Assembly: GCA_045641305.1 (NCBI GenBank)
Contig: JAZUGS010000013.1
Location: 421-64,420 of the forward strand
Direction: 5' to 3'
Length of the DNA: 64,000 nt
Source of the DNA: Candidatus Nanosyncoccus sp.
Lineage (GTDB): Bacteria > Patescibacteriota > Saccharimonadia > Saccharimonadales > Saccharimonadaceae
The notes under the pieces are model-generated. The model had not been told where the DNA came from and ran no database searches. It saw nothing but the letters and a program-made list of their open reading frames with translations. Within the stretch, counting starts at the first letter, position 1. Each line of letters opens with the position of its first letter. A program made the position numbers and the translations under genes. Shown here piece by piece: positions 844 to 1,741 of this stretch.

Positions 844-1247
844 AGTTTTATTGTATCACTTTTTTGCCTTGGGTGGCAAAGCGTCAGTTGATATAGACGC
901 TCTGCCTAGAAGGAGGAACAAGTGGCCACACATGATCTGTTTGACCACGAGGCGACGATAGCACGGCGAAAAATTTTTTGCAACCCCCTTTGCAAAAAAA
1001 TATCCGGTGTTTTTTCATGATAAGCCTAGACGGAATAGCAAAAAGCGGAAGTGGAATTGATTTCGTATTGTGGGGTTGCTAATGGCGACAACTTATGTAT
1101 TATAGATATCGGGTTGGAGATTTTTAATTTTCGAACATTATAGATCCTTCGTGTGAGGGGGATTTATAAATCGTGACAATTCTAGATAAGTTGGGTAAAG
1201 TCCCCCAAAGTTTAGTTAGATAAAAAACAAAAACTAAGGAGGATGCT

Positions 1248-1322
1248 ATGGAGATTGAATTTCATTTCAAACTTGTAGTGAAGCCTAAAATTAAAAAAGT
1301 TACCGTCCAACTAGAACGGTAA
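1248..1322 (+). CDS. 24-aa small peptide MEIEFHFKLVVKPKIKKVTVQLER, candidate type I toxin (copy 1)
   Basis: AAGGAGG SD lies 5 nt upstream. The promoter is TTGCTA-N16-TATTAT at about 1075-1102. A near-identical ORF is present at 18268-18342. Confidence 0.7.
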   Translation: MEIEFHFKLVVKPKIKKVTVQLER

Positions 1323-1352
1323 CCTAACCCAAACGATAGGTTTCTAGAGCCT
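1285..1352 (-). ncRNA. Candidate antisense (antitoxin) sRNA to copy 1 peptide mRNA
   Basis: A minus-strand TTTACT...TGaTAGAAT promoter at about 1358-1385 is followed by hairpin GATAGG/CCTATC, then terminator GTTACCGT-loop-ACGGTAAC plus a T6 tract. Confidence 0.6.
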
Positions 1353-1408
1353 ATCCATATCTACATTCTATCACTTCCTCCTTAAAAGTAAAGCACCATC
1401 AAGGCGCT

Positions 1409-1741
1409 TTACTTCTTTTGCGCAGTAATGTTAGCAGGGCGACCATAGTTGGGAATAATAATGTCAACTTTTTCGCCGAGATGATTATAGAGCGGAATAT
1501 TAAGCTCAGAAGCAAGCGCATTTACAACGGTGGCACCAATGCGGAGACCAGTAAACGAGCCTGGTCCACTCATAAAAGTGATTTCGGTGAGGTCTTGCCA
1601 GGTTTTACCATTTTCAGCAAGTTTATCGTGAATAAAAGCATGCAAATTTTCCGCTAAATCACGACCAGATTGCCAGCGATATTCATGGTCGTCCAATTTT
1701 AAGACCGTTTCGAACGTAGATGTATCAAGATACATTTTCAT
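1409..1741 (-). CDS. tsaB: tRNA threonylcarbamoyladenosine biosynthesis protein TsaB (short form)
   Basis: YLDTS and GPGSFTGLRIG motifs; adjacent to tsaE. Confidence 0.9.
   Translation of the reverse strand: MKMYLDTSTFETVLKLDDHEYRWQSGRDLAENLHAFIHDKLAENGKTWQDLTEITFMSGPGSFTGLRIGATVVNALASELNIPLYNHLGEKVDIIIPNYGRPANITAQKK

Follow-up and report, generated by a model that had tools for sequence, protein, structure and literature searches.

The window analysed here, a 64-kb stretch of DNA from a Candidatus Nanosyncoccus sp. genome (contig JAZUGS010000013.1), carries two inverted copies of a ~340-bp unit, in which a small open reading frame (ORF) with its own Shine-Dalgarno sequence (SD) is faced by the promoter of a putative antisense RNA. 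The copies are located at 1072-1415 on the plus strand (A1) and at 18177-18517 on the minus strand (A2). An original prediction, made from the letters of the window, had described the unit as occurring twice in opposite orientation and as having type I toxin-antitoxin architecture. The duplication is borne out in three ways. The inverted-repeat arms (1072-1232/18357-18517, 1223-1322/18268-18367 and 1326-1383/18205-18262) are 90-93% complementary, the mean identity of A1 and A2 in a pairwise alignment is 89%, and blastn aligns them at ~90% identity over 342 nucleotides (nt) with an E-value of ~1e-128. A1 and A2 are one member pair in a family of autonomous cassettes of ~350-400 bp each. Overall, the family is real, conserved and accessory, its small-ORF/antisense cassettes are structured, and their regulatory anatomy is that of type I toxin-antitoxin systems.

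Members and common plan of the cassette family

Contigs of relatives (numbered L012 and so on) were fetched via homologues of the window TsaB and FolD, and additional members of the family are found among them. An A-type copy, A3, lies in L012/L013 between a gene for a NERD-domain protein and radA. Its peptide is identical to that of A1, with one synonymous change in the ORF. In the related strain of L020/L021 the folD site is occupied by a fourth type, B2, which has only the upstream region and the last ~60 nt in common with A2. The comparison with B2 also exposed a third, divergent member in the window itself, B1, at ~50552-50861 on the minus strand.

All types are built to the same plan: a promoter, a leader of 110-140 nt, an SD, an ORF of 24-25 codons, a hairpin at the stop codon and an extended -10 promoter element on the antisense strand. 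In every type the stop codon lies inside or abuts the hairpin, and an A-run precedes the hairpin. When read on the other strand, this arrangement is an intrinsic terminator (in B2 judged by eye). The extended -10 of the antisense strand is located 55-70 nt downstream and reads TGATAGAAT in the A types and B2, and TGATATAAT in B1. The window was also scanned for the composite of an SD-led ORF of 15-45 codons with a stop codon in or beside a hairpin preceded by an A-run. The matches were A1, A2 and B1 only, plus one at the 3' end of a gene for a PemK toxin (see below). The B1 member goes beyond the original prediction, as do the junction between the mRNA 5' end and the stop hairpin, the focusing of divergence in the antisense overlap and the presence or absence of the cassette among relatives.

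Layout of A1, A2 and B1

The sense promoter of A1 (1076-1103, plus strand) is sigma-70-like, TTGCTA-16-TATTAT, with a predicted transcription start at ~1110-1111. The context of its -35 element, GGGGTTGC(A/T)A, recurs at other promoters of the window, that of tRNA-Met among them. The first part of the mRNA (1111-1131) holds two strands that are predicted to pair far downstream: GGGUUGG (1111-1117) pairs on the 3' side of the stop hairpin and UUUUUAAUUUU (1121-1131) on its 5' side. The leader, ~138 nt between the predicted start and the ORF, contains a hairpin in computed folds (1138-1169) with a 13-bp stem and a GUGUGA loop. In L012 both substitutions in this stem keep the pairing as G-U wobbles. 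The SD, AAGGAGG (1236-1242), is placed 5 nt before the AUG of the 24-codon ORF MEIEFHFKLVVKPKIKKVTVQLER (1248-1322). Near the 3' end of the ORF the Lys/Ile codons form the A-rich strand AAAAUUAAAAA (1287-1297), which is the partner of 1121-1131. It is followed by the stop-codon hairpin GUUACCGU...ACGGUAAC (1299-1323), which on the minus strand becomes the antisense terminator hairpin (1325->1297) and then TTTTTTAATTTT. Next come CUAACCC (1324-1330), the partner of the 5'-terminal GGGUUGG, and hairpin 2 of the 3' untranslated region (UTR), GAUAGG...CCUAUC (1335-1355). The anti-SD CUUCCUCCUU (also written CTTCCTCCTT) is found at 1374-1383, and the sense terminator at 1387-1419 overlaps the stop codon (1409-1411) of the convergent tsaB. 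On the minus strand, the antisense promoter TTTACT-16-TGATAGAAT with its extended -10 motif (1365-1392, read 1392->1365) would yield an RNA of ~72 nt (1287-1358), consisting of a 5' hairpin, the terminator hairpin and a U-tract (fold z-score -4.0).

The A2 unit is arranged in the same way on the minus strand, with the promoter at 18486-18513, the SD at 18348-18354, the 24-codon ORF MEIEFHFKLVVKPKIKKITVQTEQ at 18268-18342 (recovered in the composite scan), the anti-SD at 18205-18214 and the terminator at 18177-18197. Its antisense promoter (18195-18223, plus strand), the predicted antisense RNA (~18230-18303) and the antisense terminator hairpin (18266-18292) span 18195-18303. In the original prediction a sense promoter, a ~140-nt leader, an AAGGAGG SD, a 24-codon ORF and a terminator had been proposed, and all of them were found at or near the expected positions. 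The convergent extended -10 and the hairpin plus U tract over the ORF 3' end, also proposed there, are present as motifs in both copies.

In B1 (50552-50861, minus strand) the -35 element TTGCAA (50856-50861) and the -10 element TATCCT (50833-50838) are followed by the 5' pairing strands (50821-50828 and 50804-50812), the SD (50702-50708), a 25-codon ORF, MSFEIKFFKFSIKLSIKRLKTKKVN (50617-50694), and the terminator (50558-50587). On the plus strand, the antisense region (50537-50633) contains the extended -10 TGATATAAT (50537-50545), the predicted antisense RNA (~50552-50633) and its terminator hairpin (50602-50626).

Known RNA families did not account for the cassettes. At gathering score, Rfam recognized only seven tRNAs in the whole window, and a permissive search (E<=10) over A1 and B1 returned sub-threshold noise only, for example a terminator-like piece of sraL. 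A known RNA family was rejected for want of a credible Rfam match; tmRNA, 6S, SRP and RNase P were rejected as neither ARAGORN nor Rfam reported a match. A riboswitch or leader of a downstream gene was rejected as well: a terminator closes each cassette, and what lies opposite is a convergent gene or the terminator of a tRNA.

Predicted folding of the sense mRNA

The predicted sense mRNAs of the cassettes are ~275-310 nt long, each with its own promoter and terminator. Those of A1 and A2 fold better than dinucleotide-shuffled sequences, with z-scores of about -4.3 and -4.4. In the minimum-energy folds of both, the SD is paired with the anti-SD, which confirms the earlier proposal that the mRNA 3' end (1374-1383 in A1) is complementary to its own SD. 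The same pairing is present in the fold of B2. The anti-SD is part of a 26-nt block that is invariant in A1, A2, A3 and A4 and that is also found in B2.

A second closure involves the mRNA 5' end. In each of the five sequences, the mRNA is predicted to pair through its first nucleotides with the two flanks of the stop hairpin and so to form a three-way junction. In the A types it consists of GGGUUGG:CUAACCC on the 3' side (the R helix; the partner is CCAACC in A2 and CAACCC in A3) and UUUUUAAUUUU:AAAAUUAAAAA on the 5' side (the L helix). In B1 the R helix is GUGUGGUU:AACCAUAC and the L helix UUUUUAGUU:AACUAAAAA; in B2 they are CGUGGUU:AACCAUG and UUUUUAUUCU:AGAAUAAAAA, respectively. The pair at offset -7 of the L helix varies by type in a compensatory manner (A-U, G-C or U-A). 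Elements that would prevent premature translation, as expected of a type I toxin mRNA, are thus predicted in each sequence: the SD/anti-SD pair in A1, A2 and B2, and the junction in five of five.

The stems had originally been said to covary between the copies, and exactly those changes were recovered by RNAalifold. Among the four A-type sequences (A1, A2 and the copies of L012 and L025), four base pairs are changed on both sides, two in the stop hairpin and two in hairpin 2 of the 3' UTR, and none is broken. The energy of the cognate R helix ranges from -8 to -12 kcal/mol, with B2 as the weakest at -8.3. A-type 5' ends bind B-type targets at only -4.4 to -4.8 kcal/mol, while B-type 5' ends reach -5.0 to -9.0 kcal/mol on A-type targets. 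The separation of cognate and non-cognate R helices is clear in one direction only, since the latter range overlaps the cognate value of B2. When 3000 random 30-mers of the window were offered instead, 26 (A1), 69, 27, 0 and 0 bound as well or better in the five sequences.

The predicted antisense RNA

The predicted antisense RNAs measure 72-84 nt, and all consist of a 5' hairpin, a terminator hairpin and a U-tract. Each of them covers, with full complementarity, the last Lys codons, the stop hairpin, the strand on its 3' side that pairs with the mRNA 5' end, and the hairpin that follows. The A-rich strand near the ORF 3' end is therefore put to triple use, as Lys/Ile codons, as a strand of the L helix and as the template of the antisense U-tract. 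The sequence of the mRNA 5' end is nearly the same as that of the hairpin flanks of the antisense RNA. Both the 5' end and the antisense RNA are complementary to the flanks of the stop hairpin and would therefore be competitors for a single site.

The antisense -10 elements match a motif in wide use. TGATAKAAT occurs at 15 sites in the window versus 1.7 expected, among them positions immediately before rpsO, several ORFs and three tRNA genes. On account of this enrichment and placement, it is regarded as the real promoter consensus of the organism. The variant TGATATAAT is over-represented about nine-fold (for example at 13291-13299, 14113-14121, 16380-16388, 28472-28480, 61908-61916 and 63657-63665). 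The distance from it to a start codon (as for rpsO at 13283 and the ORFs at 14128 and 16395) or to a tRNA 5' end is often just ~7-15 nt, which suggests that many transcripts of the organism are leaderless or have very short leaders. A further consensus TGATATAAT is located inside folD (17941-17949, plus strand) and directed at A2; its transcript would run antisense into the A2 3' end.

A1 and A2 have not diverged evenly. They are 98% identical in the leader and the 5' part of the ORF versus 78% in the predicted antisense overlap (Fisher p = 4e-7). The net energy of antisense RNA and target is -85 and -78 kcal/mol for the cognate pairs, -28 and -32 kcal/mol when A1 and A2 are crossed, and ~-5 kcal/mol with B1. 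This pattern fits a discrimination between paralogues; it could also stem from gene conversion of the 5' part. In the Ibs/Sib systems of Escherichia coli, paralogues are near-identical elsewhere and diverge in the region of RNA-RNA interaction, which would limit cross-talk. A1 and A2 are alike in that their divergence falls in the interaction region, as judged here from two copies and energy calculations.

Evidence for a gene, and the nature of the peptide

Every type carries the small SD-led ORF that is expected of a type I toxin gene (24-25 codons), and this ORF is probably coding. Its length and frame are kept, and no member has either of the other two frames open. The B2 peptide MSLRIKLFRFIITLSITRAKNKKSL and the B1 peptide MSFEIKFFKFSIKLSIKRLKTKKVN display a similarity that was reached by none of 5000 shuffles, with conservative F/L and K/R changes. 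Moreover, the specific masking of the SD by an anti-SD makes sense only if translation matters.

The cassette might instead encode a structured RNA pair, either a cis-antisense small RNA pair or some other RNA, in which the small ORF is incidental. The ORF is indeed partly constrained by RNA features, which counts against its status as a gene: the Lys codons double as L-helix strand and U-tract template, and the last codons are part of the stop hairpin. By composition alone, a frame of this length would stay open with a probability of 0.09-0.14 in each member, which is not overwhelming by itself. However, the SD spacing, the AUG and the 24-25 codons ending at the same hairpin recur even though a nucleotide alignment of A-type with B-type leaders and ORFs is not possible. 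The closed alternative frames, the conservative B1/B2 substitutions and the masked SD speak against this explanation as well, and it is considered rather improbable.

The peptide itself is unusual. Its net charge ranges from +2 to +7, and the best 15-residue Kyte-Doolittle window scores 0.35-1.33, versus ~2.6-3.2 for four known type I toxins. The hydrophobic moment peaks at 155-180 degrees (170-180 in the A copies), the period of a beta-strand, and not at 100 degrees. The absence of a transmembrane-grade window and this moment peak are in agreement with the original description of the peptide as beta-like, with alternating hydrophobic residues, rather than a transmembrane helix. Searches of the peptides against Pfam, the PDB and PADLOC gave no matches. 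Type I toxins are divided into two classes, one made up of membrane peptides with an alpha-helical transmembrane segment and the other of the cytosolic nucleases RalR and SymE (PMC8309996). The cassette peptides fit neither class, as they have no transmembrane helix and, with 24-25 residues, are far smaller than RalR or SymE.

These properties lend some weight to an antisense-regulated small-protein gene whose product is not a toxin. Such a protein could be regulatory, bind ribosomes or nucleic acids, or be aimed at another cell, and the control would serve conditional expression instead of addiction or self-poisoning. A peptide unlike the known small type I toxins in its lack of a transmembrane segment, its charge and its beta periodicity favours this explanation, as does the lack of a toxin-family match in Pfam or PADLOC, and all of the RNA-level evidence fits it equally well. 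On the other hand, multi-copy and accessory elements, and a site that holds different cassettes by strain, are more typical of selfish or defence modules of the toxin-antitoxin kind than of housekeeping small proteins. The adjacency to a PemK/MazF toxin cassette of the same design and the specific divergence of the paralogues in the antisense overlap also argue against it. A non-toxin role is judged unlikely, though it is the most probable of the alternatives.

Distribution and probable exchange of the cassettes

The cassettes are accessory. Relatives with 76-78% FolD identity have no cassette between folD and the convergent TrbL_3-type gene, whose stop codons are just 16-22 nt apart there, and in relatives with 83-85% TsaB identity the gap between tsaB and radA is occupied by other genes. 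A 185-amino-acid NERD-domain gene is found between tsaB and the A-type cassette in L012 (2835-3392) and in L025 (3335-3892). It is absent from the window, which marks the tsaB-radA gap as a variable hotspot. The TsaB of the window, for which a look-up of the exact protein gave no record, has 110 amino acids, and the TrbL_3 protein of the window is giant. Together with the gut-metagenome sources, this gene content suggests a Saccharibacteria-like member of the Patescibacteria.

At the folD site, the window contains A2 (18177-18570) and L020 contains B2 (4900-5310), with a FolD identity of 96%. B2 is fused to the invariant A-type tail with its anti-SD, antisense -10 and terminator, and the SD region of B2, AGGAAGUG, is complementary to this tail. 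The junctions of the exchange map to the upstream region that both loci have in common and to the invariant tail CTACATTCTATCACTTCCTCCTT, and this suggests that cassettes have been exchanged by recombination. The accessory distribution fits a toxin-antitoxin-like element.

The cassettes also have a left-end motif in common, ATCCYGCCTAGGCTTAAAA, which is located tens of nucleotides upstream of the -35 in A2, B1 and the PemK cassette, and which is also found in L020 and L028. The palindrome GCCTAGGC inside it occurs at 18553-18560, 50901-50908 and 51519-51526, and a degenerate form, GCCTAGAC, at 1024-1031. The motif and its palindrome could be an operator or a cassette end. In addition, 23-nt direct repeats, TTTTACGCCAAAGTGCCAAGTTT, flank B1 (50513-50535 and 50917-50939). 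The copy at 50917-50939 separates the B1 cassette from the PemK cassette, and the repeat may be a cassette boundary or recombination site. Neither terminal inverted repeats nor a transposase was seen at the cassettes, and the empty sites in relatives are too divergent to define a target-site duplication.

The shared end motif and the direct repeats could be taken to indicate a mere dispersed intergenic repeat with no gene of its own, either a bidirectional terminator or insulator between convergent genes or the decaying remnant of a mobile element. The terminators of A1 and A2 do overlap the stop codons of the convergent tsaB and folD, respectively. Promoters on both strands, a conserved SD-led ORF, an SD/anti-SD pair and covarying long-range helices are left unexplained by such a repeat. 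There is also no constant partner gene (the L012 element is followed by the NERD gene and B1 by a tRNA terminator), and a remnant would be at odds with the lack of inverted repeats and transposase. This explanation is very improbable.

Profiles of the A and B types, run with nhmmer over all fetched loci, yielded no additional members, and no cassette was found in L030. A scan of a genome collection with the pattern GGGTTGGNGANTTTTANNTTTNGAA, which covers the A-type leader only, gave seven matches, all of them due to chance, with blastn similarity confined to the pattern. A two-anchor A-type leader pattern gave four chance matches in a metagenome collection, an absence that applies to the A-type leader only. 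Four patterns searched in viral contigs returned nothing or two unrelated coding matches. Logan contigs from gut and faecal metagenomes contain close and more divergent pieces of the cassette, and these contigs break at the repeat.

The PemK cassette and neighbouring features

The B-type cassette adjoins a gene for a toxin of the PemK/MazF family in two genomes, and both the design and the adjacency are kept in L028 (PemK identity 83%). In the window this gene (51028-51540, minus strand; 130 amino acids; Pfam PF02452, E = 3.6e-9) is an orphan that is not preceded by a MazE/PemI-like ORF. Its build is that of the small-ORF cassettes, with the same left-end motif and GGGGTTGCAAAA promoter and a hairpin after an A-run (51032-51051), which ends just before the PemK stop codon. 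A TGTATAAT element on the plus strand (50969-50976) could give rise to an antisense RNA that covers this gene at its 3' end.

Just upstream of A1 there is another, putative small ORF, of 32 codons with a GTG start behind AAGGAGG (922-1020, plus strand; MATHDLFDHEATIARRKIFCNPLCKKISGVFS). Opposite to it (region ~860-990), a minus-strand promoter, GGGGGTTGCAAAA...TGCTATCGT (~985->955), appears to drive radA, in which case the radA leader contains UUCCUCCUUCU. ARAGORN further identified a tRNA-Ile with the anticodon UAU (50143-50219). Such a tRNA is an uncommon bacterial way of reading AUA.

Comparison with known type I systems

On all computed RNA-level criteria the cassettes look like type I systems, and they are candidate members of the class. 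T1TAdb lists SD/anti-SD pairs, terminal stem-loops and 5'-3' long-distance interactions as key descriptors of type I toxin mRNAs (PMC8594479). The closest likeness in layout is with txpA/RatA and bsrG/SR4 of Bacillus subtilis and with the fst RNA I/RNA II module (par) of Enterococcus faecalis. As in these, a small ORF in a structured mRNA with its own promoter and terminator is opposed by a convergent short cis-antisense RNA (here predicted) over the ORF 3' end and the 3' UTR, the SD is masked within the mRNA, and the loci are multi-copy and accessory. In contrast to these systems, the cassettes have no Rfam or Pfam match, the peptide is cationic and beta-periodic without a transmembrane helix, and the antisense terminator is the very hairpin that holds or abuts the stop codon.

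As in hok/sok and in aapA1/IsoA1 of Helicobacter pylori, which are controlled by mRNA folding (fold-back inhibition and a 5'-3' long-distance interaction; PMC5416894, PMC8594479), base pairing of the mRNA 5' end to a remote 3' region is predicted in the cassettes and, combined with SD sequestration, would give a compact and inert primary transcript. The cassettes differ in that their 5' end is predicted to bind the two sequences that flank the stop hairpin in a three-way junction, at a site that would be the target of the antisense RNA too, while the antisense RNAs of hok/sok and aapA1/IsoA1 target the 5' region.

PMC12390103 states that type I systems are so far found only in Proteobacteria, Firmicutes and Tenericutes, and the host lineage of the cassettes is outside these phyla. 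In full-text literature searches, no paper was found to connect this class to either Saccharibacteria or the Candidate Phyla Radiation.

Proposed mechanism and interpretation

By analogy with type I loci, the primary mRNA would be stable and translationally inert. It would be closed in two ways, by its 5' end on the flanks of the stop hairpin (three-way junction) and, in the A types and B2, by its SD on the 3' anti-SD. The antisense RNA would start from the consensus extended -10 and end at the stop hairpin, with its U-tract templated by the Lys codons. It would make contact with exposed hairpin loops, displace the mRNA 5' end and form a long duplex, leading to decay of the mRNA and/or keeping the ribosome-binding site closed. 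Upon loss of the antisense RNA, the peptide would be made and the cell harmed or arrested. Given its cationic, amphipathic beta character, the most plausible target of the peptide would be the membrane or nucleic acids. The sequences themselves establish the repeat, the conserved layout with its covariation, the motifs for promoters and terminators, the accessory occurrence and the properties of the peptide. Beyond these, we infer that both strands are transcribed, that the ORF is translated, that the two RNAs interact in vivo and that the peptide is toxic.

The best reading of the cassettes, which we favour with modest confidence, is a type I toxin-antitoxin-like family with a non-canonical peptide. 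The architecture given in the original prediction stands in its layout, SD sequestration and covariation, and the case for it has become stronger because the layout recurs with covariation in the divergent paralogue B1 and in B2; a toxin-antitoxin function is putative. Several observations weigh against this reading. The peptides lack the hydrophobic transmembrane helix that is typical of small type I toxins, and their similarity between A and B types is weak (that of A1 and B1 was matched by 55 of 5000 shuffles, and that of A1 and B2 lacks significance). A 3' anti-SD is missing from B1, where the predicted fold leaves part of the SD unpaired. The L helix, rich in A and U, is only moderately specific, and the covariation statistics are thin, with five sequences from three or four types. 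The antisense terminator could also serve read-through from the convergent genes. Finally, no public RNA run was found to contain the element or its 10-kb surroundings, and neither reads nor contigs of it were obtained from three host transcriptomes and an older RNA run.

A more specific version of the type I reading is put forward tentatively. The cassettes would then be an undescribed, lineage-restricted type I family of a Patescibacteria/Saccharibacteria-like animal-gut host, with a cationic, amphipathic beta-strand peptide of 24-25 residues as toxin, in place of a transmembrane helix, and a lock of 5' end and stop hairpin that is mimicked and displaced by the antisense RNA. The same 3'-antisense design would be used on an orphan PemK/MazF toxin without a protein antitoxin.

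If functional, the cassettes would extend the type I class to a new lineage with tiny genomes, and would add a toxin chemistry outside the two recognized classes. They would also provide a compact case of one stretch that serves as Lys codons, as a strand of the long-range mRNA helix and as the template of the antisense terminator U-tract. The proposed mimicry between the mRNA 5' end and the antisense RNA is a directly testable switch mechanism. Should the peptide not be toxic, the cassettes would still represent an unannotated, tightly RNA-controlled family of small proteins that standard gene callers have missed.

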